Of a stretch of 33,470 bases of DNA, positions 6,174 through 29,549 are shown one piece after another. Location of the stretch: assembly GCA_032718475.1 (NCBI GenBank), contig JAUCBJ010006788.1, positions 1 through 33,470 of the forward strand, read 5' to 3'. Source of the DNA: Nemertoderma westbladi. Taxonomy: Eukaryota > Animalia > Xenacoelomorpha. The notes under the pieces were generated by a model. That model searched no databases and had not been told where the DNA came from. It saw only the letters and a program-made list of their open reading frames with translations. The translations under genes were made by a program, and so were the position numbers. Position 1 is the stretch's first letter, and the number at the start of each line of letters is the position of its first letter.

Positions 6174-6579
6174 GTAAGTTTGTTATTTAATGTAGAATCA
6201 ATGTGTTTGTAGAGCCACTGAAGTTCTAACTACACTTACAACTAACTTTTGCTGTTAAAGTTTAAATCTGCTAATCGCGTTCTACTGTAAGTACGATTGG
6301 TGCAAATCAAGATTCCGTTTGGTTGGTTGCACATTTGACTTCTGTAACCTCTCTGTGTCTCAAATCCTCTCCGACATCCTTATCCTATCTATAAAGTTAC
6401 ACTGTTCAAACTTCAGAATTCATCAAATTAAACGATAATAATAATAATAATATAAAAGTCACTTTTTCGAAATAATTTAGTTTCCTCCGCCGAAGCCATT
6501 CAACTTATTCTACCAAAGATAAATGTGCATGTAGACCTTCTGTACCTACCGTAAAAAGACCCCCACTTGCTCCACCAAA

Positions 6580-8304
6580 GCCTTTGTTAAATAAATGTGG
6601 GAGTAAGCCTACCAACCTTGTTAAATAAATGTGTGAGTAAGCCTACCAGGCTTTGTTAAATAAATGTGCGAGTAAGCCTACCAGCCTTTGTTAAATAAAT
6701 GTGTGACTAAGCCTACCAGCCTTTGTTAAATAAATGTGTGAGTAAGCCTACCAGCAGCCTTTGTTAAATAAATGTGTGAGTAAGCCTACCAGCTTTTGTT
6801 AAATAAATGTGTGAGTAAGCCTACCAGCCTTTGTTAAATAAATGTGTGAGTAAGCCTACCAGCAGCCTTTGTTAAATAAATGTGTGAGTAAGCCTACCAG
6901 CTTTTGTTAAATAAATGTGTGAGTAAGCCTACCAGCCTTTGTTAAATAAATGTGTGAGTAAGCCTACCAGCCTTTGTTAAATAAATGTGTGAGTAAGCCT
7001 ACCAGCCTTTGTTAAATAAATGTGTGAGTAAGCCTACCAGCCTTTGTTAAATAAATATGTGAGTAAGCCTACCAGCCTTGTTAAATAAATATGTGAGTAA
7101 GCCTACCAGCCTTGTTAAATAAATGTGTGAGTAAGCCTTGCAGCCTTTAACTTGTTAAATAAATGTGTGAGTAAGCCTACCAGCCTTTGTTAAATAAATG
7201 TGTGAGTAAGCCTACCAGCCTTTGTTAAATAAATATGTGAGTAAGCCTACCAGCCTTGTTAAATAAATATGTGAGTAAGCCTACCAGCCTTGTTAAATAA
7301 ATGTGTGAGTAAGCCTTGCAGCCTTTAACTTGTTAAATAAATGTGTGAGTAAGCCTAACAGCCTTCGTTAAATAAATTTGTGAGTAAGCCTACCAGCCTT
7401 GTTAAATAAATATGTGAGTAAGCCTACCAGCCTTGTTAAATAAATATGTGAGTAAGCCTACCAGCCTTGTTAAATAAATATGTGAGTAAGCCTACCAGCC
7501 TTTGTTAAATAAATGTGTGAGTAAGCCTACCAGCAGCTTTGTTAAATAAATGTGTGAGTAAGCCTACTAGCTTTTGTTAAATAACTGTGTGGGTAAGCCT
7601 ACCAGCCTTTGTTAAATAAATGTGTGAGTAAGCCTACCAGCCTTTGTTAAATAAATGTGTGAGTAAGCCTACCAGCCTTTGTTAAATAAATGTGTGAGTA
7701 AGCCTACCAGCCTTTGTTAAATAAATATGTGAGTAAGCCTACCAGCCTTGTTAAATAAATATGTGAGTAAGCCTACCAGCCTTGTTTAATAAATGTGTGA
7801 GTAAGCCTTGCAGCCTTTAACTTGTTAAATAAATGTGTGAGTAAGCCTACCAGCCTTTGTTAAATAAATGTGTGAGTAAGCCTACCAGCCTTTGTTAAAT
7901 AAATGTGTGAGTAAGCCTACCAGCCTTGTTAAATAAATATGTGAGTAAGCCTACCAGCCTTTGTTAAATAAATGTGTGAGTAAGCCTTGCAGCCTTAACT
8001 TGTTAAATGAATGTGTGAGTAAGCCTACCAGCCTTTGTTAAATAAATGTGTGAGTAAGCCTACCAGCCTTGTTAAATAAATGTGTGAGTAAGCCTACCAG
8101 CCTTTGTTAAATAAATATGTGAGTAAGCCTACCAGCCTTGTTAAATAAATATGTGAGTAAGCCTACCAGCCTTGTTAAATAAATGTGTGAGTAAGCCTAC
8201 CAGCCTTGTTAAATAAATATGTGAGTAAGCCTACCAGCCTTTGTTAAATAAATATGTGAGTAAGCCTACCAGCCTTGTTAAATAAATGTGTGAGTAAGCC
8301 TACC
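6580..8304. repeat. 35-bp minisatellite, about 49 copies, inside the FReD intron
   Basis: Unit GCCTTTGTTAAATAAATGTGTGAGTAAGCCTACCA repeated head to tail, with 34-39-bp variants. Confidence 0.98.
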
Positions 8305-8407
8305 TCTGCTAAATTGCTTCGTATTTGTATCTAATGGTGATGAAAACAAAAATATTTTCGAATTAATAGATAAATAATCTCAAGTTACGCAATATTTATT
8401 GTTTTAG

Positions 8408-9035
8408 GATAATGACCATGACCAAGATCTGGTAACCGTCCAAAACGCGTTAAACAATATATACGGCCATCTGATAGGGGTTCAGGGGATAAAGATTCAA
8501 CAAAGAGTTGATGGATCTGTTGACTTTTACCGCACCTGGAACGAATACGTTAATGGATTTGGCGACCCGAATATCAATTTTTGGTTGGGGTTGGAGAAGA
8601 TCCACCAGCTGAGTGAAGGCGGGGTGAAGTTGAGAGTCGATTTGTGGTTCACTGGAGACGGGGTGGGTAGATCCCAATGATGAAACAATGGTAAGCTAAA
8701 GAATTACTACAACGAACACAAATACGCGGAATACAACAACTTCTCTATCGGATCAGCTGCAACTAATTATCGCCTACATGTATCCGGTTACCATGGTACT
8801 GCTGGTGACGCATTGGATATTCCAACGGTGCACCATTCTCTACCAAGGACCGCGATAATGACGGGATGACTCCTACAACTGCGCCGTAGATCATACTGGG
8901 TCGTGGTGGTACAACAGCTGCGGGTTCAGTAGCTTGAACGGAGAATATGGTGCGGGGGTTCAGAAAGGACCTTATTGGGTCGTTTTACTGCATGGGAATC
9001 CGGCTTCTCGAGTTGAAATGAAGATTTGGATTTAG
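8408..9035 (+). pseudogene. Fibrinogen C-terminal (FReD; ficolin/tachylectin-5/angiopoietin-like) domain exon, disrupted as assembled
   Basis: Manual translation gives [39 protein letters not shown]...LRVDL...YAEYNNFSIGSAATNYRLHVSGYHGTAGDAL / YSNGAPFSTKDRDND / YNCAVDHTGSWWYNSCGFSSLNGEY...VEMKIWI*. There is an in-frame TGATGA at ~8678-8683 and frameshifts at ~8818 and ~8870. Confidence 0.9.
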
Positions 9036-9713: not shown

Positions 9714-10313
9714 TTATATTTTAACGCCTCTGTTTGAATATCGCCAGTTATTTGGTTTCTGGAACGGTTCCTGTGCCAAAGCGAGGGAGCGAAGAGGAGT
9801 CCTAAATGAACCGGAATCAGGGGCTGTCATACCAACCCGGATATATACCGAGCGATCAGTCACCCTGACTACGGGGGTCGGGTAGACACGGGGGAAACGG
9901 GAGTGGGGTCGGAATGATTCCGAGGTGGCGGCCCGGAATACAGGAGGGATATCAAGTGATATCCCCGCGGTAGTATCCGGGGTTACAGACGAGACTCGGT
10001 TGAAACTCCTCCGGTAAACCGACGTGTAGGGCCGGGTACCTCGCCCAGCTGTGTCACTCACCCACTCGATGTGGTTCGCAGACAGATGCTGCCGCATATC
10101 TCCGTAGGATTTAAACTTCCCAAACTTCTCGTCGAAATAAACCCGCGAAAGTTCTAGAACATTATTGTTGTCAGAGTGTCGGTAGATATCTGTCATCATT
10201 TCCCCTGCAGTCGTGTTCTCTCGGATTGCCAATGGTGGCGCCTCGTTTCTATGGTAATACCACGTGTGGTCTATTGGTAACCATGGCGACCAAGGATGGC
10301 TAGCTTTCGGCAT
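9714..10313 (-). CDS. Intronless 199-aa hypothetical protein
   Basis: Starts at ATG and is a GC-rich island in AT-rich flanks. TATATAAA lies ~75 bp upstream and AATAAA ~25 bp after the stop, both on the minus strand. No family recognised. Confidence 0.55.
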   Translation of the reverse strand: MPKASHPWSPWLPIDHTWYYHRNEAPPLAIRENTTAGEMMTDIYRHSDNNNVLELSRVYFDEKFGKFKSYGDMRQHLSANHIEWVSDTAGRGTRPYTSVYRRSFNRVSSVTPDTTAGISLDIPPVFRAATSESFRPHSRFPRVYPTPVVRVTDRSVYIRVGMTAPDSGSFRTPLRSLALAQEPFQKPNNWRYSNRGVKI

Positions 10314-10720
10314 ACTCAGAGAATATAGTTCGTCGAATTAATGATGAAGAAACATTTTATTTCATTCTACGTCTAACACTAGCAAATTTATATAAAGTAA
10401 CTCAATATTCCCACTCGAGGTAGAGCCGTACTTTATAAATAAAAATATACAACATAAAAATACCGGTTAATAACGATAATTTTGATTAAATTTGAAAATA
10501 ATTACAAAAAATAAACAAATCCACAAACATGCTAATCGTAATACAACCAACCCGAGAATAAGTCGGCCGTTAATTAGATTGGCATTAACGGTGTATTGAT
10601 TACCCCTCATCATGTTGCCAAGCAATAATTCTCTCAAGGTAATAGATGTTGCCATTCGCAACATCCCATTCGGGGGGGGGGGGGGGGGGGGGGGTTATAA
10701 AGCACACGCTACCCAATAGC

Positions 10721-10775
10721 GACACGTATTTTAGTGACACGTAATTTAGTGACACGAATTTTAGTGACACGAATT
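10721..10775. repeat. 15-bp tandem repeat, about 3.7 copies, after a poly-G run
   Basis: GACACGWAWTTTAGT x3 plus a partial copy; G-run at 10672-10694. Confidence 0.85.
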
Positions 10776-11410
10776 GAAATTAATATTACTCTACGTCCTA
10801 CGATACGTGAATTATATCAAATTTTGTCAACTACACGGAAAAACCAATAAGGACATAAAATCAGGTTAATTTAGTAAAACTTTTTATTATCATATTTGCA
10901 CTACTTGTTTTTTTCGTGCACCGGGGCACATTCAAAATGACCAGAAATTTTCTCGAATGTTATATTTGAGTTCTATAATCGCGATCAGCATCCAAAAAAA
11001 CCGCTATTTACTTCAAATAAATTTATTCTAGCGAGACATAATTATGACAATTTTCGCGCGAAAAATAATTTTGATGGGTTCCAGAAAGGGACCCCAGCAC
11101 GAAAGCTAACTCAGCCATAAATTATTGTTATATTTGAAACAGAGACAGTTTCACCTCCATTCTCCGTGGCTGAGCCAGAATTGGCTGAGAATGTGCAACC
11201 GTGCTGGAGGCCACAATAATTATAAAATTATTAGCCAAAATAATAGAATTATGAACCGCAACTATTAAAAACTGTGAAATTAATATGTTTTGTTATTAAA
11301 TTATATTATTATGTAACAGGTTAAAAAATATATGTGCCCGTCCCAGAGCCCTTACATTACGTGACCCAAAATAATAGAGATTACATAACTGTAATGTCGC
11401 CAGTTCGATT

Positions 11411-14400
11411 AAGATTACTGGCACAAAGGGGAGCAAGAGAATCTACGCTATTCTAGATTCAGCCTCATCTCACAGCTACGTGGATGAAAAGATAGCTGAT
11501 GTAGTGACGGATCTCAGACAAGGTAAGCGCGTCAGTTACACCATAAGTAATATGCACGGACAACGTGCAATACCAGTGACACGAGTTAAGTTATACTTAG
11601 ACACTCTTCTTCCGAAATCGCAACACAGCGAAAAGGAGAGGTCTTTGTTACCCTTTAAGGATTTGACTTTTGCGGCCACCAAGGACTTTAGTAACCTACT
11701 AGGTCCTGTCCCAGAACAATCCTTGGAGGACCGTAAGTATTTCAGACACCTTGGTGTACCTGAATGTCCTGTCAATTATAGATCGGTAGCAATGCTGATC
11801 GGGACAGACCAATTCAACCTACATCAAGTGTGGGAAACCAGACCATCGGCAGTCGTAGCAGGAAATGCATACGCCTGCAGAACGCCGATAGGTTGGTTTA
11901 CTCGAGCGCCTGTGCGCACACTGGATATAAGTGACGAGGAAGACGATATACAAAGTACATGTAGTTTATTAACTACAACGTCGACTCATTCCTTTTCACA
12001 CGATGTAGACTATACTACACTACATTCGACAAAACACGACAGACGTGTAACTAGTATGATAAGTCACAAGGAGCAGCTAATCCACCAGGTGAGTTTAGAA
12101 CTTGGGGAGAAGACGAGTCAGCCAGAGATTCCATTGACGACAGATGATAACGCCGGAAGGCTTGCGAGTCTACCTACCCCAATAACCTCAACAATACCCG
12201 TCGATATCGATGACGACGCGTTAAGAAACCATCAAGTGGAACAAGCTGCACTGGACAAAGAATTAACGGAGAAGACTATCAGGTGGTTAGAACAAGATAC
12301 AGCCGAACCTGGTAGCTACGAACCATGTATGTCGGAACAGGAGAAACAATCTCTGAAGATCATGGAAGATACTATCCGCCAGACGAAAGACGGACATTAT
12401 GAGGTAGGGATGTTATGGCGTAGCCAAAGTCCTAAACTCATAAATAACTACCCGTTAGCTTTAAGACGACTACACTCAATACGACAACGTCTATTAAAGG
12501 ACGAGAAAGCCCATCTGCAGTATAACACTCAGATGGAGACGTATTTGACCAAGGGATACGCTATCCGAATGACTAATCCGGAGATAGTGACTGACCAGAC
12601 ATATTACTTGCCACATCACTTTGTGAGACACCCCGATAAACCAGACAAAGTACGTGTAGTCAATGACTGTGCGGCTCTGTTTGAGGGAATGTCCCTCAAT
12701 AGTGAGTTGATGGATGGACCAAACATGAATAATTATCTTATGGGGGTGATTATGCGCTTCCGTCAGCGTCAAGTAGCCTTTACTTGTGACGTTGAAGCGA
12801 TGTTTCACCAAGTGAGAGCGTTAGAGCGAGACAGAGACAGTTTGAGGTTCCTCTGGTATCCGGAAGGAGACTTAAGTCTACCACCGGCGACTTACCAAAT
12901 GCAAGTTCGCGTTTTCGGTGCCAGGGACAGCCCAAACTGCACGATGTACGCCCTAAAACAAGCCGCTAGGGATCAGAAACACATGTATGACCCAGAGATA
13001 ATTAACATAGTAGAACGTGACTTTTACGTAGACGACGGTCTACAGAGTTGTGACACAGTAGAACGTGCTATAACAGTAGCACTTCAATTATGGGACTGCT
13101 TAGCGGGTGGAGGTTTTAACCTCACCAAATTCGCCTCAAACAGTGCCGAATTAGTAGACTCATTCGGAACGACTGAGCGTGGAGGTGGTGACATAGACCT
13201 AGAGTTCGAACCACTACCGACGACCAAGGTGTTGGGGCTCTTTTGGGACCCAAACACGGACAACTTTCGAGTGAGAGTGAGACTGGACAGTCAAGAAAAC
13301 ACACTGACAAAGAGATCATGCTTGTCAAAATTGAGCCGATTGTTCGATCCATTAGGATTCATCAGTCCAATAATACTGCAAGCCCGCATTTATATGCGCA
13401 TTATCTGGAAGGATGGACTGACATGGGACGAGCCGATCTCATCAGACCAAGTGGACTTATGGAAAACCTGGGAGGCAGAATTATCTTCGCTAGAGGATTA
13501 TTCCATACCCAGAGTCTACTTTCCATTACAAACAACATTTCCTGACAACTTGGAATTACATTGTTTTTCCGACGCCAGTGACAACGGATTTGGTGTGGCA
13601 GCGTACTTGCGCAGACAAGTAGACTCAGAAGAATTCGATGTTTCGCTCATTACTTCTAAGGCAAAAACAATGCCTACTAAGTATATGACGACACCACGAG
13701 CTGAGCTACAAGCCGCAACCCTGTCAACCACAATCGTGAACCTTATACAGATAGAACTACAGTCAAGTTTACAGATATTTTATTGGACTGACGCGACGTT
13801 GGTTTTATTTTACATAAACAACGACACACTTGAATTCAAGACATTCGTAGCTAACCGTCGCGCAGAAATTCTAGACCGTTCAATAAAAGAGGATTGGCGA
13901 CATTGTCCCGGACCACAAAACCCAGCTGATATTGCGTCGCGAGGAATGATGCCTGAGGAATTCTGTAAATCGGAGAACAAAGAATTTTGGCAACACGGAC
14001 CACAATTCTTACAAAGATCAACACTACATTGGCCGCCATTATATGACAACAAGTCTAACACCATCCCTAAGGACGCCGAAATCAAGAAACCAAAAAAGGA
14101 GAAGGCAAAGAAAAGGACGACGGCGGCTAAACTTAAGAAAAAACCGAAGGCGAAATGGAAGGATATAACTTCAAAGGTCAAGAATGGAAGACTTGCGAGC
14201 CTTTCTACACCAGACGTATCGCCAGACGGTCAACCAGACATGTTACTAGACAGCCAACCAGACATTTTGCCAGACATATCACAAAATGTTCAACAAGACA
14301 CTAGTAACATATTGATAAACAGTAAAGCCGCAGTTTCTCTATTGGAGCGGCCTTCTATTGACAAACAACCAGATACGTTACCAGACGTATCGCCAGACAC

Positions 14401-14503
14401 GTTACTAGACGGTCAACCAGACGTTTTGCCAGACACGTCACTAGATATTTCGCCGGATGTTCGCGAAACATTTTACCAGACATGTCACAAAATGTTCTAC
14501 TAG
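11411..14503 (+). CDS. pol: BEL/Pao pol, part 1: aspartic protease, reverse transcriptase, RNase H
   Basis: The frame is open upstream of the GTG call and reads KRIYAILDSASSHSYV (protease). Also LIGTD, YYLPHH, KVRVVND, SLNSELMDGP, DVEAMFHQV, FGARDSP, FYVDD, FDPLG, LHCFSDAS, PRAELQAA, WTDA, FVANR and NPADIASRG. Confidence 0.97.
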   Translation, partial: KITGTKGSKRIYAILDSASSHSYVDEKIADVVTDLRQGKRVSYTISNMHGQRAIPVTRVKLYLDTLLPKSQHSEKERSLLPFKDLTFAATKDFSNLLGPVPEQSLEDRKYFRHLGVPECPVNYRSVAMLIGTDQFNLHQVWETRPSAVVAGNAYACRTPIGWFTRAPVRTLDISDEEDDIQSTCSLLTTTSTHSFSHDVDYTTLHSTKHDRRVTSMISHKEQLIHQVSLELGEKTSQPEIPLTTDDNAGRLASLPTPITSTIPVDIDDDALRNHQVEQAALDKELTEKTIRWLEQDTAEPGSYEPCMSEQEKQSLKIMEDTIRQTKDGHYEVGMLWRSQSPKLINNYPLALRRLHSIRQRLLKDEKAHLQYNTQMETYLTKGYAIRMTNPEIVTDQTYYLPHHFVRHPDKPDKVRVVNDCAALFEGMSLNSELMDGPNMNNYLMGVIMRFRQRQVAFTCDVEAMFHQVRALERDRDSLRFLWYPEGDLSLPPATYQMQVRVFGARDSPNCTMYALKQAARDQKHMYDPEIINIVERDFYVDDGLQSCDTVERAITVALQLWDCLAGGGFNLTKFASNSAELVDSFGTTERGGGDIDLEFEPLPTTKVLGLFWDPNTDNFRVRVRLDSQENTLTKRSCLSKLSRLFDPLGFISPIILQARIYMRIIWKDGLTWDEPISSDQVDLWKTWEAELSSLEDYSIPRVYFPLQTTFPDNLELHCFSDASDNGFGVAAYLRRQVDSEEFDVSLITSKAKTMPTKYMTTPRAELQAATLSTTIVNLIQIELQSSLQIFYWTDATLVLFYINNDTLEFKTFVANRRAEILDRSIKEDWRHCPGPQNPADIASRGMMPEEFCKSENKEFWQHGPQFLQRSTLHWPPLYDNKSNTIPKDAEIKKPKKEKAKKRTTAAKLKKKPKAKWKDITSKVKNGRLASLSTPDVSPDGQPDMLLDSQPDILPDISQNVQQDTSNILINSKAAVSLLERPSIDKQPDTLPDVSPDTLLDGQPDVLPDTSLDISPDVRETFYQTCHKMFY

Positions 14504-16476
14504 ACACTAGTAACATATTGACAAATAGTAAAGCCGCAGTTTCCCTATTGGAGCGGCCTTGTATTGACAAACTACCAATTTTGACACACTTGAGCAACCA
14601 TAAGCACGGTGAAACCTCATGTATTACAGATGTGGGTAGTACCTACGCTAATGTAAATACAGGTGTTACTTTGCGCTCAAGAGACATACCAAACTCGCAA
14701 CCTATGGTGAAACCTGGGATTAATATCGGTAGAAAAATAAGTTTACCGAAACCCACTGACCCCATAGAGTTCAAACCACCATTAACGATCGACTTACGAA
14801 GTACTGACAATCAAGGTAAGAAGACGAAGAAGGACAAATTACTTGTAGACCCGGACGGATCAACAGTCAACAAGGGAATACTTACCGGCGGACCCGTGGG
14901 CCCTTCTAGTAAATCAAAACCTTCCAAATTCTCCATTGACTTACCTGATGACGTCACTAATACTCACGTCGACCGTATTGTAAACCTAACAGATACTTGG
15001 ATAAACGCTTGCCGAAAATTAGCGTGGATTGTACGTTTTGTACAATACGTTAAAGGCAAACGAGACTTTACACGTCGACTTACATTGACTGAGATTGACA
15101 GGTGTGAGATTAAATTAATTCGCCATTATCAATTGCGATATTTCGCACGCGAATTCACATCTATAAGTCAAGGTCAACCAATCAAGTCGTCACCAATACT
15201 GAGTTGGAGTCCGATTATTTATAATGGCTTAATTTGTCATAAATCTCGGCTTCAAAACATTGACTTTAACACAAACTTTAGGTACCCAATAATAATACCG
15301 CAACACCACGAACTACAACGTGCAATGATACTGGACGCACATTTACATCTGAAACACGCTGGAAGACACCACTGTCTTTCCTACTTACGTACAAGATTTG
15401 TATTAATTAGACCCAGTAAAGCGTTAAGTTCAGTGACACGTACGTGTATTATTTGTAAAAAGGTACATTCTAGAATAGGTACCCAAGTAATGAGTGAACT
15501 TCCACAAGCACGACTTCAAGCATTCAGACCACCTTTTACAGAGACTGGAATTGATTGCTTTGGTCCCATACATACGAAACGTGGACGTATACTAGTAAAA
15601 TGCTGGGGACTGATTTTCACATGTATGTCCAGTAGGGCAGTTCATATTGAACGTGTGATGGATCTTTCCACCAATGCGTTTATACTAGCATTGCGGCGAT
15701 TTATCGCTAGACGCGGACTAGTGAAATGCTTGTACTCAGACCAAGGGACAAACTTTGTTGGTGCTCGAAATGAGATTGCTAGAGCCTTTAAGAAATTAGA
15801 TCATGATCAAATCTCAAACGAACTACAACCTCACAAGATTGTTTGGAAGTTTAATCCTCCAGATAGTCCATGGAGAGGCGGAGTCTGGGAGAGATTGATT
15901 AGATCTATAAAGACAGCCATGGCAAAGGTCATTCCAGTAAACCACATATTGACAGACGACCAACTGACAACACTGTTTGTTGAAATCGAGGCAATACTAA
16001 ATACTAGACCAATAGTATTAGTACCCGATGACAAACAATCTCAGTTTGCTTTGACACCGGCACACCTGCTTATGCAGGCACCGACGACTTTGACGCCTAT
16101 TTCTATTCCAATAGAAAGCGATAGCTACGGTAGAAAAGCGTGGAAAATCATGCAACTACTGGCTAACAAATTCTGGGAAATATGGCAAAACCATTATTTG
16201 CCCTCTATTTCTGCCAGAACAACATGGTACAATAACACCCGCGCATTAAAGCCGGGAGACCACGTGCTGTTAGCAGAAGTGAATCTAAAAAGACGCTTCT
16301 GGATAACAGGTGTAATTTTAGCCACTCATCCATCTATGGATGGAGTGACAAGAACTGTGACGGTACGGACAATTGACGGTCGTACAGTAGACAGACCGAC
16401 TCAACGTCTCGTACTTCTTGAAGAGACTCCTAACGAGTCTGGAGACTACAAATCTCCAACTAGTATTAGTAAATAA
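14482..16476 (+). CDS. pol: BEL/Pao pol, part 2: linker and integrase (frameshifted continuation)
   Basis: Zn motif H-x4-H...CIIC; catalytic core TGIDCFGP, RAVHIE, YSDQGTNFVG and GGVWERLI; EAILNTRP, LTPAHLL, and a BEL-type C-terminal domain. The frameshift lies in the duplicated linker at ~14460. Confidence 0.97.
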   Translation: MSQNVLLDTSNILTNSKAAVSLLERPCIDKLPILTHLSNHKHGETSCITDVGSTYANVNTGVTLRSRDIPNSQPMVKPGINIGRKISLPKPTDPIEFKPPLTIDLRSTDNQGKKTKKDKLLVDPDGSTVNKGILTGGPVGPSSKSKPSKFSIDLPDDVTNTHVDRIVNLTDTWINACRKLAWIVRFVQYVKGKRDFTRRLTLTEIDRCEIKLIRHYQLRYFAREFTSISQGQPIKSSPILSWSPIIYNGLICHKSRLQNIDFNTNFRYPIIIPQHHELQRAMILDAHLHLKHAGRHHCLSYLRTRFVLIRPSKALSSVTRTCIICKKVHSRIGTQVMSELPQARLQAFRPPFTETGIDCFGPIHTKRGRILVKCWGLIFTCMSSRAVHIERVMDLSTNAFILALRRFIARRGLVKCLYSDQGTNFVGARNEIARAFKKLDHDQISNELQPHKIVWKFNPPDSPWRGGVWERLIRSIKTAMAKVIPVNHILTDDQLTTLFVEIEAILNTRPIVLVPDDKQSQFALTPAHLLMQAPTTLTPISIPIESDSYGRKAWKIMQLLANKFWEIWQNHYLPSISARTTWYNNTRALKPGDHVLLAEVNLKRRFWITGVILATHPSMDGVTRTVTVRTIDGRTVDRPTQRLVLLEETPNESGDYKSPTSISK

Positions 16477-17137
16477 TTAGGAGTTTACAAATAGATTTCC
16501 ACGTACCTGTACACCGTAATAAGGACAGCGGTAGAATTCCATTGTCTTTATATGTGAACATTGAGGGTGGTACCCTTATGTGTCACATAGGAGCGGGATT
16601 TGTAGGTATAAGAAATGGAATTCTACTTGGAACTCACAATATTGAGACATTTTCGAAAATTTAGACAATCCATTTGGATTTGAAAAATTTTTAAAATTTT
16701 CTCCAGTGAATAGATTTCAGGGTACAGTCGGGTGGAACTTAAAATTAGAGAAACAAGAGAGGAAGACTTGCGAGCCTTTCTTAAAATTTTAATTAAATTT
16801 TACACGGTCTTGTTTCAATAAGTTACGTCAATAAATAGACTCCCCTATATTTATTACTAATTCTTGACTGCTTATTTTCTGATAATAGTTTGGGATCAAA
16901 AGGTGAGTATTTTAGACTCACAGCCAGTTTAGCCCAAATTCGTTTTTATTTCGGCAAAAAATTTTAGATAAGAAGCAGCGTGTCATTAAAGAAACCCTAG
17001 ATCTTAGGCTATGGGTAGGAGGTTAGAGCGTTGTCGAGCCAAAAGGGCAGACGAAACTCTCACGTCTCCTCACAACTAACTACAAACTCTGTTGTATTCC
17101 CTCTAGTAGTAATGATTATGTAACTACACCCCTAATT

Positions 17138-20017
17138 ATGGAGAAAGGGATACAAGGAGAGCCGAGATGGGGATATGATATCCAAGAGTAGGCAGCAGCG
17201 CCATTCGAAAGATTTGGAGCCAAGGACTACACTATATTTGGTATAAAAGAATTATCAGAAAGTACAGCGAAACTCGCGAGAACTAAATATGACTCAAATG
17301 TATTAAAGAGAAGACAAAATGCATTAAATGAAAGAATCGAAAGTTTGCGCAAAACCTTCAATGAACTGTACCCGTACGACGCTTTGTGTGATACGGGAGA
17401 CATTAGCGAAGACCCCGATACTGAAATTAGTCGTTTGTATCATACCATGCAATACCTAAAGGCGCACGAACCTATGCCCGCGGTACGAGATGAATTCGAT
17501 GGAATGCACCTTTACAGACGAACTCGAGGGGACGATAGAGAAACCAAGGAAGCATTTTCAGTTTATAAACTTTATTATCAATGCGGTTCTTGTATGCGCG
17601 AACAACGAAATGCGATTCCGATGCGCTTGAATAAGGAAAATCCCGAACCGATATTGGCGAGGTGTTCGAATCATCAACAACTACGCTACCAGGAAGGAGG
17701 GTATCCTTTATCGAATCCATATCATTCGTTTGCTATGACTGGACCAAAGGCGGGAGAAACTGTCATTTACCCACCTAAGGTTGTTGAACCCGATGTATTT
17801 GAACTTACGCTGGACGAGGCGAATCAGTCAACCCGCGAAAAGAAAGAAGCTCTTAGCCTATACAGAGCCTACAAGGCTTTCGAGAAAGGTGAGATGGAAG
17901 AATGGGGCGGAAGACTCGCGAGCCTACCTTACCATTGGACGTCACACGATCAAACTCCAGCTAAGGAGATGACACCGGAAGTTTTCGAGAGCATAAACTT
18001 TGCTCAAAACGTTATTCAGAGACTACAGATTGCATCCCCGGAAAGGACAAGAGAAATGCAACCATATAGTACTTCAACTACGAAACCATTGAGTACGACA
18101 CTCAATTTTCCTATTAGTATACCAGTCCGACAGGATACGACGTACGAAATACCCATCGTGGATCATCCAGAAATCATTTCAAACTTGGAGTTTCTTCCTG
18201 CAGTTGTTTTCAGCGATATGAGTAAGATATATGATTTACGTAGACATATTACTCAAAAGGTCGTGTACAACGTCCCACCTCATATTCAAGACTTTAAGGA
18301 ACTGGATAGAGCTGGTGCCGATATAGCTCCGAGTAATTTGAAAGGATATTTAACCAAGACGATTCGTTTATGGATTGGAATCGGAACCTTCGAGTCGGAT
18401 ACAGATATTGCCGCGGATTGGCGAGGTAAGGTTATTCGTTTCGAAGATGATAAGGACATAGAGAAGATTTGGCAACCTTCGGAAGAATTGTTGGATGAAT
18501 GGAATAGGACGTTTAGATCGTTCCAGGAAAATGGTTACATGTTTTACGATAACGAGAGCGGCAGTCATCAACAGAGTTTGACTTCTAAGACTATACAAAT
18601 TAGAGCGGCGGACGGAGTCCTGCACGTTTTCAGTAGACAGAGGAGCGACAAACGAATGCCGATACCTCCAGCAAATACAAAGCGACACCATCTCATCACT
18701 GACATAGTAAAGAAGATGGACCAAGCTTGTAATATCGACGCTAGAATGCTACCGAAGATGGTAAGAAATATGATTTTAGATAAAACTGTTGTAAAGATTG
18801 GATCAGGAGTAAGGGAGGACTTAATTAGCGACTTCGCTGGCATGACGGACAGCGATGACCGACTACCGACACCTTACGTCGACACTCGACCTCTTATTTT
18901 GTGGTCTATAGAACAGGGATATTTTCGTGAGTATAATACTCAGAAGACTGGAACCGGATACATTTCCTACCTGTTATTCAATTGGGATTATAAGGAAAGT
19001 AAGAGAACCAAGTATATTGAGACTTATGGAGAAGGTGATACTCCAGATATGAGTGAGTTTGAATCACAGCTTAAATGGAGAGGATGCGTGTATTGGGCTA
19101 TTACGTCACCTCCAAGAGCGGTCTTACAATATTATTTAGCAATAGAGTCATCAGTGAATGTTTGCCTAATCGCCGACATTGTGTCTCGGACTCTCAAAAG
19201 ACATCCACTTTGTCTCGGAGAAGATCATACATTCTACATGGAAGGGAGAATTCATACCGACGTGTTTAGACGATTCCTTGAACCCTTCTACAACTCCGAC
19301 GCTCAGTGTAATGCCTTTACTCGAGCAGGATTTAGTATATTTCGAGACGTGTATCTTCGCTGTGCGGGATCTCTTATCGAAAGACCATCTATGTTTACAT
19401 TGTTACCCTATGAAGGAGAACGTATCGTGGAGATTACGGATGAATCACGGCAGACGCGCGCGCCTATCGGTCACCTTGGTGATGATTTCGAAGTAACTAC
19501 TACGATCACTGACGATCCTTTAGAGGAACTTCTTGAGATAGAAAGGAACCTCCCGAAGAAATCTCAGACGGAGATTCGACAACTTGAAGCAACAGATGCT
19601 ATAGTTTGTATACAACCTTCAGAAACCTACCAACCCATAGATCCAGATGATTACGATTATAGTGTGGGAGGAAGCGCTCGACCGATTGGAGATCTTATAT
19701 ACGAACGAGTGTGGTACCCTGCCAATACGATGTGTGGTAAATGTGGCGTCGCTGGACATCATATGACAAAGTGCAGTGGAAAGCACATTACTACGACTCA
19801 GCTAATCTGTGGATGGTGTGGAGATCAAGGGTCTCATACCTTTTATACTTGCTGGAGATTTATGGCTCAATGTACTTATTGCAATATAAAAGGGCATCGA
19901 GCATCTGAATGCCAACTAAGAGACATACCTTATGAACACGAATCTGCAAAACTCGTGAGAAAATTATTAAAAAAAATTACGTTAAAAAATACGCACAAAG
20001 AAGACGATTTCCGATGA
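17138..20017 (+). CDS. Retrotransposon accessory protein: degenerate DEDDy (WRN/EXD/Mut-7-like) 3'-5' exonuclease fold plus three CCHC zinc knuckles
   Basis: 890-aa ORF at 17345-20017, with an in-frame ATG at 17138 separated by one TAG (17189). Exonuclease-like blocks at ~18360-19190: IGIGTFESD, TIQIRAADGVLHVF, LPKMVRNMILDKTVVKIGSGVREDL, YVDTRPL, GTGYISYLLF and QYYLAIES. Knuckles at 19733-19912: CGKCGVAGHHMTKC, CGWCGDQGSHTFYTC and CTYCNIKGHRASEC. Confidence 0.75.
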
Positions 20018-20831
20018 GGGCGCATCTTGGATTTTGGGCGGTAAATCCCCAAACGATGATGTCGGAAGGATACATCTCCGCTATGCCCCAATATGGCGAA
20101 CTTATCGAGGTAGTCGATATTTTGCCCCACGACAGTGGATTCCGAGTAGTGCGCGAGTATCTATTACAGATTCACCCGGATAACAAAAACACGTGGAATT
20201 TTCAGAAAGTCGTTAATCGCATCACGTATGGTGAATTCGATCGTTTCCGAACTGAAAAGCGGAATAAAGGAGCTTGGTTAACCGTCGCATGGGCGTACCG
20301 AGCCGCGTTTTACCACAAACGTATACGAGCGAGCGTATTCGAGGAAGAGGAGGTCCTAGAGGCGACAAATATACCAGCCACTCCGGTTGCGCCGTCTGGA
20401 CGTCACCCTCGGGAGGACGGACAGGGTAGGATCATACGGGTCCAGAAAGTGGGCCAACAGTTAAAGAAGTCTATTAATATAGAAGAACGCAAGGGAGCTG
20501 AGCCGACCATTCGAATTACTCGGGATACGGTATCACTTCCTAGAGAACCAACAGGAGGATCGGGACACACACCAGCTGATCAAAAGGGTCTGCGTCGTCC
20601 GCTTCCCGCGCGTTCCCAGACGTTCTACCAACTGTAGTGACAACTGATCGGTCACGAGGAATCGGTCGAGGTTTTGGGATGCCAAATAGACGAATTTGCG
20701 AGGAAATAGTCGCACAGTCTCTCAACGTCCCAAGTAAACCAGTGACTCGTCCCATTAGTCCCATATCACGAGCAAAGTCACCTGTGCGCAGTTTTCGAGG
20801 ACGCGGCAGGGCTCGATCAACTAAGCGATAA
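20014..20831 (+). CDS. Probable frameshifted C-terminal continuation of the accessory gene (or a small downstream ORF), basic and Arg-rich at its end
   Basis: ORF 20014-20637 overlaps the previous stop (ATGA) and ORF 20637-20831 abuts it. Coding-like composition continues to 20831, then drops to AT-rich UTR. It ends RSFRGRGRARSTKR. Confidence 0.55.
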
Positions 20832-21383
20832 AAGGGAGGGCAAGGGTGGACGGAAGACTCATGAGCCTTTCTTATAGTTTCATTTGTAAAGTGTTATATT
20901 TTGTATTTAGAAAGTTTTATAGTTAGAAAGTTTTGTGCTTAGAAAGACTCATATTTTGTAATTATTCCGAACTTATGCAATCTACATTTAGGCATGAAAG
21001 TATTTGTAATTATTTGAATTTATGCAATATTTGAGATGCAATAGTAGATGGAAGACTCGCGAGCCTTTCTTATTGTTTTCATTTATTTGTATTTGTAATT
21101 GTTTGAATTTATGCAATATTGAGATGCAATAGATTTATATTGGTGAATTTAATTTAGATTTATATTGTACTTACTTAGTAAAGCCTTAAATACGTAAAGT
21201 TTGAATTTGTAATTATTTTGTATCGAATCATTACGTAGAAAGGAAGTATTATTTGAAATTTAATTGTAAATATGTATTAGTAGGTATTAAGTATTAATAG
21301 GTACTAAGTATTCTATAGTTTGATTGATTATTGGTGAAAACCGTATATTTTATGCACAATAATATCCTGTTTTCATGGAGCGG

Positions 21384-22027
21384 TATAGAATTATATTCCC
21401 TAAATGCCGTGGATTTTCAAAATTTTATTTTTATTCGAATTAACTTTGCTAAAAGATTACTTTGAGTCCTCATTTATATTTGTTATATCATTTGTACGCC
21501 TATTGGTCAAGTGGTTCAGTAGCTCAGTCGGTAGAGCGTTGGAAATTATATGTGTAGTAGGTATTGAGTTCGAATCCTAGTAAGTGCGAATTATTTTTTG
21601 TGCAGAATTTCAACTCATTTAAATTGACCGCTACAAATTAAAGTGCATTTGTTTATACCTAGATTAACCAATGAGGCTGTAGTTATTAGATTGTAACCAA
21701 TGTCGTGCAAGTTATATATTAGCTGGACCAATAGCTATCTTTAAAAACCTGTTAGAACCTATAGAACAATCGAGAATTTTCTCGATTGATTGCAGCACAA
21801 ATTTGCTATAAAAAGGTGCGATTTCGTTCATTAGTTATACTTTTCATCAATCGTATACCTTCTTATCTATATCTCAATCGTTTATCTTCTTGATTCACTA
21901 TCTTACATTGTTTATTGTATAATAGTTATTATTTGATTTTGTAATAAAAGTTAGAAATACTTGTCACATCTGCAAATTTTCTATCTGTTTTACCATGCTT
22001 CACCACGGTAAACCCAACTAAGGGACA
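21384..22027 (+). repeat. Candidate 3' LTR of the BEL/Pao element
   Basis: Follows GGAGCGG (21377, PPT-like). Contains three CCAAT boxes (~21669, 21697, 21728), TATAAAA (21807) and AATAAA (21943), and ends AGGGACA followed by ggaTGG. No second copy in the window confirms it and the 5' TG is not clean. Confidence 0.55.
21513..21599 (+). ncRNA. tRNA-derived sequence with Pol III A and B boxes; not an intact tRNA
   Basis: A box/D-arm TAGCTCAGTCGGTAGAGCG, B box GAGTTCGAATCC and a T6 run at 21594-21599. The anticodon and acceptor stems pair poorly. Confidence 0.7.
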
Positions 22028-23383
22028 GGATGGCCGGCTAGAGATCGGGCCGCAGCAATGAACGGGAACATCAAGGGAATGTAGACAGGAGACAACCCGA
22101 AATACCATCTTGAGTTATTCGCCCATCGCCTGAAAGGTTAGACAGCGTTCGATGCCTTGCTACCTAAGCGTAAGAGCAAAGATCAAAGGTAGAAGTAGTG
22201 ACACGCTGTACGCCTAAAATAACATCTTAGGGACTGTACTGTTTTAATTCAGGAAAAAACCGCAGTAGACCTTCATATTCCTACGGGGGGAGAGGAGAGA
22301 GAGAGCAGGCAGAGATACTAGTACGCAGATAGGACGTAGGCACACCGGTACGAAGCATACAATTGGTAGGGTGCAGCAAACTGTACGCCTAACTCTTGCT
22401 AAGTGCAGGTGCGTGTGCGACTATTTGTAGTACAACGGTGTCCATTGCATCAGAACTTGTAGGCTAGGAGGGTTGCTGTGTTTCACCTGAATTAGGATTG
22501 TACCGTTCAGGCGGTAGGGCAGTTTACGACTAGGCGCAAATAAATTGAGGCTATTAGGGATATACTAACATCTACCGTGTCCCCGCCAACGTCCTGATAG
22601 GAAGTTACCCAGCCTAACTAGGTGACTAAAATTCCAGATAAGAGCCAGGATAGCTATTAGTAACTGTACGCCTACTGTAGTAAACTAACACATTTCTTCT
22701 TAGTATTAGGGACCTGGTACCTAAAATTGCCGAATTCTGGGCGTAGCATTAACTTTATGCCTGAATTTGAGTCCTGGAAATACGCAAGAAGGGAAGGAGC
22801 CTTATCATTCGTGAGTATTGGACCTACAAGTTACAAAATTAGAATATTCGTAAAATGCACACCGTACCCAGTAATTATATATGTGAAGGAGGAAAACTGC
22901 TTTGACTGTTCAGAATTAACACACGCGCGTTAGAAATTATTTACACCTCAAAATATATAAAATTAACTTTCATCCGTACTGCGCTTTGCCCGCTAGTTAG
23001 ACATCTCCAAATCTCTGCACCTAGCTAGCATCCCTTTCGCCCAACCATATAAATTACACCGCGGCAAAGTATACGAGCCCCTTAGTCCGTCAGTGAATCA
23101 GCCTGATTTTAGGATTCGCTGCACGGGATTTTGTTTTATCGAAGTTTGTCTGCTCGTAGACTGTTTTCTGCCTCACCGGTTATAAGAGATCGATACTGCA
23201 ATATATTCGCTTACTTAGAGTTTACTGTTTTGGTGAGAAGGTCGGATTTATGATTTGATTCACAAACTTTACAGTAGGATATTGCAGGTATTGTTACTGT
23301 CTCTTCCAACAATTAGGCCTAAGTATAATAAGCAATAATATACACAGAAATTCGTAATAGAAAATACGAAAAAATACGTATAA

Positions 23384-24813
23384 CTAGTCCCCACACACTG
23401 AATTTATAATTAGATCGATCTCATCACGGTTAAAACCCAAAATATCGATTTCATTATTGCGGTAATTAAGTAGTTCTTTAATTAATTGAATAGCGCCCGG
23501 ATCCCCGTTTTTATACCACTTTCTTGATGCTACCTGCTTGGACATGAGCTTCAGTAAGTTCAACTCTTGACAAAAGTTTCTAATGCGGCGGAAGTTAACC
23601 CCACTGACTGTTCTACAATCTGGCAGAGAGACATTCGCGAGAAATCTGACACATAATTTATTGCTGTTGAGGAGAGACTGTGCAAAAGAAACAAACCGGC
23701 TGCAAATCATTGACATCGGATGCGGAAAAGTACACAAACCCTCCCCAATATAACAATGAGTTTTGTAGGGAAGGTTATAGACCGTACGGACATTAATATT
23801 CCATGCGCGACCCACACGCTGCGCTCCCTCTGACCAGATATCCCACAAACTGCTACCATACAAACACATCGCATATCTTCTTTGTATTTCAAACAAACAC
23901 GATGGATATGAGAATGAAAATTCCTGGTGTAAACTCCGTAATTTGCCTATAAATTGTCCTCTCTTACGAGTCATGTCTTGATCAAAGCTGCAGTTATAAT
24001 CAACAACATTGTCAAGGTGCATCACCTTCTTCACCCACGGAAGCTTAACTCCATCAAGTTTAACGTTATTACTAGGCTCAGACCAACGTTTTACAAACGG
24101 GATACACTTTGATTTGCTTTTTGCTGGGTCACTATCGCGGCTGAATTTTAATTTGTGTTTCAAAGAGAATTCCTCACAAATCGAGATCATAAATTGTAGA
24201 CCAACTATTGTAGGACATAATAACAATAAGTCATCGGCATATGCCAATACACCGAAATACACTGAACTGATACTGCAACCAACCTTGGACTTACGAAGAG
24301 CCACAATCAGTCTGTCTACAATGATACAAAAAAGAACCGGCAAGGCTACCGAACCCTGCCTGATGCCATTCGAAACCAAAAAAGGATCCGATAAATTGTT
24401 ACCCCGGCATTTAACACAACATGACTGTTCCTTGTTCATCCACAGAAGCACCCTTACAAACAAAACCGAAAAACCTTTCTTTAGTAACTCCAAAAATAAT
24501 GTTACCCAATCCATCATATCGAACGCTTTCGATAAATCAAGAAAACACCCATAGACTGGGGTAGAGAACCGCGAATAATGCGAAATGACTTCTTTAGCAG
24601 TCCATGTACAGCTGGTGGTACTCGAACCTTTTTGAAAGCCAAACTGAAGTTCATCTACAATAACTCTGTCCCCTTGAGAAAGTAGCATTACCCACTCAAA
24701 CACCTTAATAAGTAGTGAAGATAACGCTATTGCCCGGTAATTATTTGATTTACTGAGATCACCCAAATTGTCTTTAACCAATGGAACAAGAGAACAAGTT
24801 AGAAGGTACTTAA
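23384..24813 (-). pseudogene. LINE ORF2 reverse transcriptase domain and C-terminus
   Basis: NYRAIAL, QFGFQKGSST, FLDLSKAFD, GIRQG, LAYADDLLL and KSKCI motifs. Confidence 0.95.
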
Positions 24814-26366
24814 CCCTATTAGTACCGGGCTATAAAATGCTGTACAAATACCGGGAGGGGGTCATATTGACCCCCCCCTCTAAAATCTACAAATATTTAC
24901 GAAAACGTCTGATTTTTTGTTTGTACGTAGGTATCACTTGTCTGGATACGACCGAAAAAAAAAAATTTCGAAAAAATGTACTGGGGTGGTTATATTGCAG
25001 CACCAAAATTACAAGTAGTGCACAATTTTCACAAAATTTGAAAGTTACATTTTCGGCTAATTATTTTTCAATACAGGTTTTCTGGGGTGCAAAAAACATT
25101 GGAAAATATTTAAAAATGATATGATTACTATAAATGGCCGTTTAGTCCTCTCTGCGTAGGAAAAAAATGAAAAAAACAAGTAACCAGCACTTTTCAGGTA
25201 GAACACAAAATTTTTAATTCACTTATACGATGCTATAAATTCACATTTTCAGGTTTTCGATTGCGCTGATTCTAATGGAATACATTTCTAATATGCCAGA
25301 TCATTGATACTTGTATTTTTCGGCGTAATTTGGCAAATTTTGGTGCTAGCACCAAAATTCGTACCCATCACCAAAAAGTACAAGTTTGCGATGTCCAGTG
25401 CTGTTTTTATGGATTCCATCGGATTCAGGACCCTCATAAACCCGTATAACGCAAGAAACAAGGTGATACCATCTACTGATAAATTTGCATATTTTCCAAA
25501 ATTTGGTGCTGGCACAACAATTTTTACCCACTGGCGAAAAATACCAGTTTGAGAACTCTTATGAAATTTTTACTGATTCCATTGAATTCAGAACCATCAC
25601 AAACCCGTATAACGCAAGAAACAAGGTGACACAATCAATTGATATATTTGATGGTTTTCAAAATTTGGTGCTAGCACCACATTTTGCACCCACATCCGAA
25701 AAATACAAGTTTGAGATGTCTAGTTCGATAATTATTTATTCCATTGAATTCAGAACAGCCATAAACCTCTAAAATGCAAGAAATAAATTGTCACAAGCAA
25801 TTTTATCTATCGAAGGAATTTTCAAAATTTCGTGCTAGCACCAAAATTTGCACACAGCACCGAAAAATACAAGTTTGATACGCTTGGTGCAACTCGTATA
25901 TATTTCATCGAATCTAGAACCCCAAAAAACCCCAATTGCGTAAAAAACAAGTTTCAAACAATCAATTTACAAAATTGACATAATTCAAAATTTGGTGCTG
26001 GCACCAAAATTTGGCAACCACCGAAAAAAACAAGTTTGAAATTTCTAAATCAATTTATATGAATTCCATCAAATTTCTAACACCAAAAAACCGGTGTAAA
26101 TCAAAAATAGAGATGTTTCAATTCATATTTAATGAAATGTAATTTTCAAAAAACGTCTCAAAAAAAGTGCCAAAAGTAGGGTTAAAAAATGGTGCTATAA
26201 CTCGAAAAGTACCCAATATTTTTGAAAACGGTTTTCACTACTAGGAAGACAATAGATTTTTAGGAAAAGTCATAAAATTTCAGATTCCCAACTGCGTTTG
26301 TTTCAGAATTATAATAAAAAAACCATGGGAGGGGTCATATTGACCCCCCCCCCGGGTTTAATAGGG
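24814..26366. mobile_element. piggyBac-like non-autonomous DNA transposon, 1553 bp
   Basis: TTAA duplicated at 24810-24813 and 26367-26370. Termini CCCTATTAGTACCGGG and CCCGGGTTTAATAGGG form an imperfect TIR. Excision restores the LINE frame HGFVL|KYLLTCSLVPLVKDNLGD. No transposase ORF. Confidence 0.93.
25240..26100. repeat. Internal ~163-bp tandem repeat (about 5 units) of the piggyBac-like element
   Basis: Palindromic core TTTTGGTGCTAGCACCAAAA and variants at ~25341, 25504, 25666, 25830 and 25993. Confidence 0.85.
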
Positions 26367-29428: not shown

Positions 29429-29549
29429 CATTTTGCGGATAAAAAGCGAATTTTAAAATGAATAACTAGTAAAAAAAACACTAGTTACCGTATAGAAATA
29501 TATACTAAGGTTGAGAACATTCACCATTATAGTACCAATAATTTAATTT

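Follow-up and report, generated by a model that had tools for sequence, protein, structure and literature searches.

The locus analyzed here, a BEL/Pao retroelement of Nemertoderma westbladi, carries one near-palindromic 21-nt sequence many times over, which raises the question of whether this repetition reflects selection for a signal and, if so, in which molecule the signal acts. Our preferred reading, held tentatively and with slightly less than even confidence, is that a selected 21-nt hairpin, present 8 to 9 times along the element, serves in the sense-strand RNA as a packaging and dimerisation tag for the zinc knuckles of Gag. It is based on the copy number, the location of all copies on the same strand, their unrelated flanks, the varied peptides and codon phases, the two-sided changes in the stem, and the absence of the motif from other BEL loci. 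To judge from the cited account, RNA selection and dimerisation by LTR retrotransposons are little known outside Ty1 (PMC6844567). Our literature search returned no account of cis-acting RNA signals in BEL/Pao elements; any extra ORFs of BEL elements that are annotated in supplements or repeat databases could bear on novelty. A nearly literal, covarying 21-nt hairpin that is repeated through coding sequence represents a directly testable signal.

The host element and its accessory gene

The window (the whole stretch of DNA analyzed, 33,470 nt) contains an element with a Pao-type RT-RNase H, an integrase with DUF5641, and the order PR-RT-RH-IN, which identify it as BEL/Pao; its best relatives are approximately 40% identical. 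The first pol piece (11378..14503, + strand; protease-like, RT, and RNase H; Peptidase_A17, E 1e-41) is 5'-truncated, and both gag and the leader are missing from the window. The second piece (14362..16476, + strand) comprises the integrase and DUF5641, and the pol frame of the window copy is broken within a duplicated linker. The linker between RNase H and integrase shows a lineage-specific expansion (14070..14965, + strand) that contains two hairpins and exceeds the linkers of other BEL loci by 800 to 860 nt (15 of 21 loci aligned at both ends). Of the two LTRs, the primer site, and the polypurine tract that a complete element would have, a 3' LTR-like stretch with TATA and AATAAA is what was seen, and the ends of the element are provisional.

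Downstream of pol lies an orphan accessory ORF of 941 aa from stop to stop (17192..20017, + strand). Continuous high read depth supports the original prediction that it is part of the retroelement family. In the window copy, an in-frame stop (17189-17191) cuts the ORF off from an ATG at 17138. Judging from sequence signals, the interval 16830..17140 (+ strand) may hold the gene's own promoter and a 5'-UTR intron, with AATAAA at 16830, a donor-like site at 16903, a branch-like site at 17076, and an acceptor-like site at 17106, ahead of that ATG. The ATG of a short downstream ORF (20014..20637, + strand; no family match) overlaps the accessory stop (ATGA).

The accessory protein had been described as combining zinc knuckles with an exonuclease fold, and the first part of this description holds: three CCHC-type knuckles were identified (19733..19912, + strand; zf-CCHC E 0.004, below the cut-off), whose best PDB match is a nucleocapsid (E 0.025). 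The exonuclease fold is without support, as no Pfam or PDB sequence match to a DEDD/DnaQ exonuclease was obtained and two single-sequence fold models (pLDDT 32; best Z, 4.2 and 4.0) gave no meaningful match. A by-eye likeness to Maelstrom or DEDD domains was likewise rejected for lack of Pfam support. Searches for relatives yielded 0 of 5161 candidates for the protein, and 0 of 35 candidates for the knuckle region (longer proteins only); pattern scanning of metagenome contigs gave 24 matches, none of them a relative. Residues 1-836 had no match in 1.84 billion representatives, and for a protein with no detectable relative among these the hairpin offers a first handle. According to the description of bdelloid rotifer LTR retrotransposons that carry a DEDDy-exonuclease ORF3 (PMC5408684), these share with our element an additional ORF 3' of pol; in contrast to ORF3, the accessory protein is larger, has three knuckles, and has no DEDD-family match, and the cited part of that description makes no mention of a repeated hairpin.

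Number and placement of the hairpin copies

The six 21-mers predicted originally, at 12155, 14186, 16761, 17909, 20852, and 21050, were all found in a direct check on one strand and with the expected letters. At up to 3 mismatches, a pattern that was derived from these six sites themselves gave 12 matches in the window, namely the six sites, each with its mirror image, and none of 100 shuffles reached this number (mean, 0.07). Leave-one-out profiles, run alongside, scored each held-out copy at 24.7 to 35.9 bits, compared with at most 19.4 bits at any other place. The six copies are thus real, but their number was underestimated: the true count is 8, possibly 9, since the six-copy profile found three more on the + strand inside the element, of which those at 19449 and 14887 are solid and that at 15361 is borderline. 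These were chosen by the profile using sequence alone, with no structural information. The best three profile matches in the element beyond the six are all on the + strand and have 6 of 6 stem pairs; 6 stem pairs were present in 0 of the 15 other matches in the element at 4 bits or more. Within the 33-kb window the motif is confined to the element, as originally noted, with 0 copies elsewhere; the comparison of inside and outside drew on the window, public contigs, and other BEL loci.

Five or six of the 8 to 9 copies are coding, and the copies are kilobases apart; four or five belong to the gag-pol part and four to the accessory part. The copy in the protease-RT linker (12155..12175, + strand; loop UGCG) encodes GRLASL and has G.U at pair 6-15. 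Other family contigs commonly have a 9-nt gap that reaches into its first three positions, and this gap over its 5' end, which accounts for 10%, 53%, and 100% of the depth in runs X1, X3, and X4, counts against the preferred reading. The expanded linker holds a copy at 14186..14206 (+ strand; loop UGCG, peptide GRLASL) and a new degenerate one at 14887..14907 (+ strand; loop CGUG, peptide GGPVGPS). For the latter, 0.11 are expected per element by sequence score, and a full stem was present in 6 of 109 null matches. The ninth copy, a borderline one that lies where the integrase binds zinc (15361..15381, + strand; peptide GRHHCLS), has a complete 8-pair stem and a loop, CCAC, that is not YRYG; it scored 13.6 bits (E 0.15), with 1.2 expected by score and 0.028 with a full stem.

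Between the pol stop and the accessory gene, a non-coding copy (16761..16781, + strand; loop UGCG) is followed by an AT-rich tract and then by the AATAAA at 16830. The accessory ORF contains one copy at 17909..17929 (+ strand; loop CGCG, peptide GRLASL) and a new degenerate one at 19449..19469 (+ strand; loop CGCG, peptide RQTRAPI), which is in a codon phase different from that of the GRLASL copies and of which 0.007 are expected per element. Two copies are 3' non-coding: that at 20852..20872 (+ strand) has the loop CAUG in the window and CGUG in other family contigs, and that at 21050..21070 (+ strand; loop CGCG) lies with it in a local duplication of ~198 nt, the number of which differs among contigs. 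The copies at 14186 and 16761 are identical and also have a few upstream bases in common; in general, flanking sequences are at chance identity. Neither the motif nor the accessory ORF was present at 21 other BEL loci.

Constraint on base pairing

Three coding copies share a frame, with GRLASL at codon phase 0, and constraint had been placed at the nucleotide level. The first statement was confirmed, and the second is supported by the other peptides, the other codon phase, and the non-coding copies, on the basis of which a protein-level constraint on GRLASL was discarded. Given GRLASL, the probability of the observed codons is ~0.002 per copy.

The predicted base-paired stem is supported by the copies at 19449, 14887, and 15361, and not by the evidence originally offered for it. 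Pair 8-13 is U-A in six copies, C-G in 14887, and G-C in 19449 (and A-U in 15361), whereas pair 4-17 is A-U in seven copies and G-C in 14887. Because the extra copies code for different peptides and vary jointly on the two sides of stem pairs, it is the pairing that is constrained, rather than GRLASL or a double-stranded DNA site. The covariation score was 0.232, compared with 0.120 ± 0.028 in shuffles, none of 500 of which reached it; slid controls gave at most 0.116. Counting against this, just 2 of 8 pairs show two-sided changes, which 145 of 500 shuffles match, and there are 3 cells with such changes, matched by 20 of 500. Pairs 2-19, 9-12, and 10-11 combine a fixed G with a C or U partner, the G-C/G.U pattern of the + strand. 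Pair 6-15 is A.C in seven copies, G.U in one, and G-C in none; A.C and G.U wobbles are isosteric.

As delimited by the pairing pattern, the loop is UGCG in three copies, CGCG in three, and CGUG in one, or in two if the family form at 20852 is counted. The covariation that had been read from the cores CTCGCGAG and CTCATGAG did not hold, as CTCATGAG is a private single change and not a compensatory one: essentially all read depth at position 20861 is G in four of four runs, so that the family loop of this copy is CGTG and the CATG of the window is private. The private change falls on a CpG. Methyl-CpG decay is not favored as the origin of the loop variants, as CpG depletion was seen in no part of the window (o/e 0.83-1.25). 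Conservation of the two UTR copies across the family is not significant, with variation at 1 of 42 motif places and 24 of 299 flank places (P 0.16), a point against the preferred reading.

The stability of the hairpins is unremarkable (z of -1.74 to +0.62 against shuffles), which counts against the preferred reading, and the hairpin was the full minimum-energy fold in context in 2 of 6 copies tested. Self-duplex energies ranged from -20 to -28 kcal/mol, compared with -1.5 to -6.3 for the hairpins. Rfam covariance models gave no match at E up to 5 (10500-23500), and neither did ARAGORN. The Smaug recognition element has the loop consensus CNGG(N), and the Roquin decay element has a YRY three-base loop closed by C-G. 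The hairpin is unlike both, since the third base of its loop is Y and the covariation at pair 8-13 fixes a four-base loop.

A proposed dispersed tag for packaging and dimerisation

In the packaging reading, the hairpin would act as + strand RNA, with a stem that probably consists of G-C, G.Y, a loose pair, R-Y, G-C, an A.C/G.U wobble, C-G, and any Watson-Crick pair, followed by the four-base loop. The Gag knuckles may bind a YRYG loop by way of its exposed G. Single hairpins would be weak, and for this reason many low-affinity sites would act cooperatively during Gag assembly on the RNA. Since the self-complementarity of each site extends through the loop, two genomes could pair with each other at the same site by refolding into a duplex, which would link dimer formation with Gag binding. 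Copies would last mainly where the protein tolerates them, in expanded linkers and UTRs, and degenerate elsewhere.

This reading has partial parallels. The minimal packaging signal of Rous sarcoma virus is described as containing SL-C, whose UGCG loop exposes a G that is held by the N-terminal CCHC knuckle of the nucleocapsid (PMC8833184; PMC7599994). Common to both are a short stem, a UGCG-type four-base loop (predicted here, and exactly UGCG in three copies), and a reverse-transcribing element with CCHC knuckles. SL-C, however, is described as one copy in a 5'-leader three-way junction, whereas here 8 to 9 stand-alone copies are found in pol, the accessory gene, and the UTRs, with a conserved A.C wobble and putative knuckle binding. 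Multiple weak, degenerate stem-loops with a common loop motif along the genome, coding regions included, are also reported as dispersed packaging signals of ssRNA viruses, namely, MS2, STNV, enteroviruses, and HBV (PMC6281560, PMC4751978, PMC7793301, PMC5699041). According to these reports, coat proteins are their readers and SELEX is needed to see them with any ease, whereas our motif is nearly literal over 21 nt and resides in an LTR retrotransposon. Our literature search found no description of dispersed signals in LTR retrotransposons, to which the proposed tag would carry this mode of packaging over from ssRNA viruses. Ty1 PAL1/PAL2 and the MoMuLV DIS are described as 5'-region palindromes (PMC6844567; PMC7599994) that, like our motif, are self-complementary and able to pass from hairpin to intermolecular duplex; unlike it, they are confined to the 5' region and are not one repeated motif.

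Further points count against packaging. Gag, the proposed reader, is not in the window. According to the two sources just cited, the signals known from retroviruses and Ty1 are clustered in the 5' leader. Furthermore, four copies lie within the predicted accessory mRNA, where a packaging signal selective for the genome would not be expected.

Alternative functions and origins

The same + strand hairpin might instead be a post-transcriptional self tag that serves export, localisation, translation, or defense against silencing by small RNAs, with the orphan accessory protein or a host protein as its reader; we consider this possible though not probable. It would fit the division of the copies between gag-pol and accessory parts, both with UTR copies ahead of a poly(A)-like signal, the lack of both motif and accessory ORF at the 21 other loci, and the three knuckles of the accessory protein, which is a possible reader. 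However, this protein has no fold or family assignment, and the residue right after the first cysteine of its knuckles is G, G, and T, whereas this position is aromatic in the nucleocapsid knuckles that align with them; as the CCHC reader, the knuckles of Gag are more likely. Joints in X1, X3, and X4 revealed derivatives that lack ~2 kb of the accessory ORF, which are neutral at best for this self tag. Possible but likewise not probable is RNA-level self-recognition, in which a BEL family would have gained an orphan triple-knuckle protein and, along with it, evolved a private hairpin barcode, repeated 8 to 9 times in pol linkers, accessory gene, and UTRs, by which the protein would mark every family transcript for export, packaging, or silencing protection.

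That the motif works through the minus strand, as antisense RNA or minus-strand cDNA, or as a cruciform in DNA, for instance as a pause or recognition site in reverse transcription or in the integrated copy, appears unlikely. In 7 of 8 copies the minus strand is slightly more stable, with G.U instead of A.C at pair 6-15, which counts against + strand RNA, and two-sided changes suit any intramolecular pairing. On the other hand, pair 2-19 turns into A.C in 6 of 8 copies on that strand, the last loop base is A in 3 of 8, and energies with DNA parameters are merely 0 to -2.4 kcal/mol.

The original prediction had also considered a dimer-binding DNA site, and the two-sided changes weaken this alternative to the point of being very unlikely: if a dimer bound the duplex, there would be no reason for positions 8 and 13, or 4 and 17, to change jointly. 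Its model would be VANC, which binds VANDAL motifs and lifts silencing; the VANC21 motifs are described as being likewise of the same orientation and family-specific (PMC5735166), and our near-palindromic motif is also accompanied by an element-encoded orphan protein. In that description, however, the motifs are 9-nt duplex DNA sites that belong to a plant DNA transposon, lie in tandem repeats outside coding sequence, and show no pairing constraint, whereas here copies are mostly coding and kilobases apart, with unrelated flanks and pairing covariation; the absence of CpG depletion throughout the window is a further argument against it. Finally, a neutral 21-nt palindromic unit, spread by template switching and tolerated in expanded linkers as it is seven codons long, could account for the identity of 14186 and 16761 with their few shared upstream bases and for the local duplication of the two 3' copies, but is highly improbable given that diverged copies with flanks at chance identity retain the stem via two-sided changes, that 19449 is in a different codon phase, and that 15361 lies within a conserved integrase region.

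Similar sequences outside the family

Peptide traces of the motif in Pol relatives were not convincing among the best 120 of 329, and no BEL loci in viral contigs were obtained. Pattern scans returned 1 viral and 50 metagenome stretches with one site each. The pol and accessory ORFs had 0 tblastn matches in these stretches, which resemble palindromes of bacterial terminators or of the REP type.

Motif copies and nucleotide constraint

A pattern search of the window allowing up to 3 mismatches recovered the six 21-nt near-palindromic hairpins of the original prediction at their claimed places on the + strand (12155, 14186, 16761, 17909, 20852 and 21050): its 12 matches were these sites plus their mirror images, whereas 100 shuffles averaged 0.07. 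Because the pattern had been derived from the sites themselves, leave-one-out profiles were applied; held-out copies scored 24.7 to 35.9 bits and other places at most 19.4. No copy was found in the window beyond 12155-21070, which agrees with the claimed confinement to the element. All six copies are real, but the count was too low. A sequence-only profile of the six added copies 19449, 14887 and 15361, the top three element hits beyond the first six, each on the + strand and with all six stem pairs; such a set occurred in none of the 15 remaining element hits of at least 4 bits. Copy 19449 (17.9 bits; 0.007 expected per element from 1000 Markov nulls) encodes RQTRAPI in a different codon phase, and copy 14887 (12.3 bits; 0.11 expected from 1000 Markov nulls, with all six stem pairs in 6 of 109 null hits) encodes GGPVGPS. 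Copy 15361 (GRHHCLS) is borderline, with 6.8 bits and 1.2 expected, or 0.028 with the stem (1500 nulls); a covariance model built on the other eight copies ranked it next (E 0.15).

The 30-base flanks of the nine copies show chance identity, except for AT-rich tails common to the three non-coding copies, and the codon choice in the three GRLASL-encoding copies has a probability of about 0.002 per copy given the peptide alone. Other peptides, another phase, unrelated flanks and this codon choice therefore define a stand-alone 21-mer under nucleotide constraint, as had been proposed.

Stem, loop and covariation

In the eight copies other than 15361, pairs 1-20 and 5-16 are always G-C and pair 7-14 always C-G. 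Pair 2-19 is G.U in six copies and G-C in two, 4-17 is A-U in seven and G-C in one, 6-15 is A.C in seven and G.U in one, and 8-13 is U-A in six, with C-G and G-C in the others; 3-18 is loose (four A-U, four mismatched), and the loop is YRYG. Copy 15361 has A-U at pairs 8-13 and 6-15, yet its loop is CCAC. The covariation score was 0.232, compared with 0.120 ± 0.028; no shuffle among 500 reached it, and slid controls did not exceed 0.116. Two-sided changes, however, involved only two pairs (matched by 145 of 500 shuffles) and three cells (20 of 500). Base pairing of the motif is very probably under selection. Folding of the hairpins is weak (-1.5 to -6.3 kcal/mol) and does not surpass that of shuffles (z -1.74 to +0.62). 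They form the full minimum-energy fold in context for two of the six copies tested, whereas self-duplexes reach -20 to -28 kcal/mol.

The host element and its family

The host is a BEL/Pao retrotransposon, with Pfam matches to Peptidase_A17 (E 1e-41), DUF5641 (E 1.5e-21) and an integrase zinc domain; its closest proteins are about 40% identical. The window's copy lacks gag, and its pol lies in two frames, with the break inside a duplicated linker; two further ORFs follow, the accessory one of 941 aa and then a short one. Within the linker, 14209-14577 contains 12-nt tandem units encoding a PD-rich peptide and a 206-nt duplication; the frame break is located here.

Contigs from runs X1 and X3, which sample other family copies, span 30 of 30 bins of 10600-23500. 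Summed depth was about 13,000 to 85,000 across both pol and the accessory ORF, against 15 to 55 for most single diverged contigs listed; depth does not equal copy number. This bears out the claimed tie of the accessory gene to the element, and we infer that both belong to one high-copy family. The CATG core, previously considered compensatory, is not: essentially all depth at 20861 is G in all four runs (three samples) and 20862 is without an alternative letter at 2%. The family loop at copy 20852 is therefore CGUG, and the window's CAUG is a single private change. Among the 40 of 1040 substitution entries and 12 of 94 gap entries listed for the family contigs is a 9-nt gap placed at 12149, which counts against invariance of copy 12155. 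It reaches into that copy's first three positions in 10% (X1), 53% (X3) and 100% (X4) of the depth; the outer stem is either lost or remodelled. Loose ends occur at 20875 in all four runs and joints skip 125 to 265 nt; the 3' region rearranges directly behind the hairpin, and unit number is variable. Within 20790-21130, 1 of 42 motif places varied, compared with 24 of 299 flanking places (P 0.16), which is consistent with constraint but not significant.

Joints 17277-19310 and 17293-19422 (X1, X4, X3) mark family derivatives in which about 2 kb is missing from the accessory ORF (17192..20017, +) but both the knuckles and hairpin 19449 are retained. One of the joints falls within a lone CTCGCGAG core (17273). 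Sequence features suggest a predicted promoter and 5' intron for the accessory gene, and the ATGA stop-start overlap with the next ORF (20014-20017) points either to translational coupling or to a break in the window's copy. Positions 21600-23311 comprise an LTR-like stretch (TATA 21807, AATAAA 21944, CA ~21968) and, behind it, about 1.35 kb that likewise has family-level depth and ends in CCAACA. Immediately upstream of this LTR-like promoter, a tRNA-like stretch (21505-21600) that carries a T run and sequences resembling polymerase III A and B boxes had no ARAGORN or Rfam call and no complement of at least 11 nt within the window; high read depth suggests that it is part of the family.

Other BEL elements and databases

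The comparison set comprised 21 BEL loci (RT 30 to 40% identical) on animal-like contigs within bacterial bins. The motif was not found in them (best profile score 15.1, against 25.8 to 36.4 for the window's eight; best model E 1.7), nor was the accessory ORF. Searched de novo for dispersed 20-mers, the window's element yielded the motif, 13 of the 21 loci yielded nothing and, among the top four families, the other 8 yielded only periodic arrays. The RNase H-integrase linker, where two hairpins sit, is expanded: it is 800 to 860 nt shorter in other loci (15 of 21, both ends aligned). The protease-RT linker that contains copy 12155 exceeds that of locus L056 by about 70 residues. Matches elsewhere (fifty metagenome, one viral) were all single sites with no BEL neighbour. 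The motif is a real, covarying, family-specific signal with a putative reader, seen in one family only.

The viral match (L001:4500-4520), a perfect hairpin accompanied by a T run, immediately precedes an ORF that begins, by eye, like a bacterial reverse transcriptase; the hairpin is probably a terminator and a coincidental match. The 21 BEL/Pao contigs, nine from a single bin, lie in GTDB bins named as bacteria and are apparently eukaryotic contamination.

Possible function

The motif may be a + strand RNA tag, with Gag knuckles as candidate reader, the reading that we favour, though tentatively; knuckle binding would promote packaging and dimerisation of element RNA. We take the exposed G of the Rous sarcoma virus UGCG loop to be its second base; that base is G in seven of eight motif copies, and the eighth also has G there in its family form. 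A Rous sarcoma virus knuckle sandwiches an exposed G of the UGCG loop (PMC8833184; PMC7599994), MoMuLV (PMC7599994) and Ty1 (PMC6844567) palindromes switch to duplexes, and dispersed weak signals drive ssRNA virus assembly.

That the tag acts post-transcriptionally, with the accessory protein or a host protein as its reader, is possible but rather unlikely. The accessory protein ends in three CCHC knuckles (best PDB match, retroviral nucleocapsid 2ihx_A, E 0.025, the Rous sarcoma virus protein), all lacking the aromatic residue that directly follows the first cysteine in aligned nucleocapsid knuckles. It had no relative in sequence searches and no Pfam family above cut-off, which leaves its exonuclease label unsupported. 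Action as a minus-strand or cruciform form is improbable; evidence on the working strand is mixed, as pair 6-15 and total energy in seven of eight copies favour the minus strand and the fixed G facing C/U at 2-19, 9-12 and 10-11 favours the + strand. A VANC-like duplex-DNA site (PMC5735166), akin to the dimer-binding site once considered, is very unlikely because two-sided stem changes favour base pairing and speak against a plain duplex site. Neutral copying is equally hard to credit.

LTR elements with extra ORFs are known (PMC5408684). The searched literature, in which few subscription journals are represented, gave no account of an internal hairpin repeated within a BEL/Pao element.

Other features of the window

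An interrupted minus-strand non-LTR retrotransposon (23384-27688; RVT_1 E 8.5e-19, endonuclease remnant), lying after the CCAACA end, contains a nested insertion with ~163-nt repeats. The window also holds a 2.2-kb tandem repeat (1-4700), a 35-nt satellite (6550-8300), a 42-nt G-rich satellite (27740-29460), a gene fragment that by eye is fibrinogen-domain-like, intronless and broken (8400-9035), and a minus-strand ORF (9714-10337) with a Pfam HDNR match at cut-off (E 5.4e-06).
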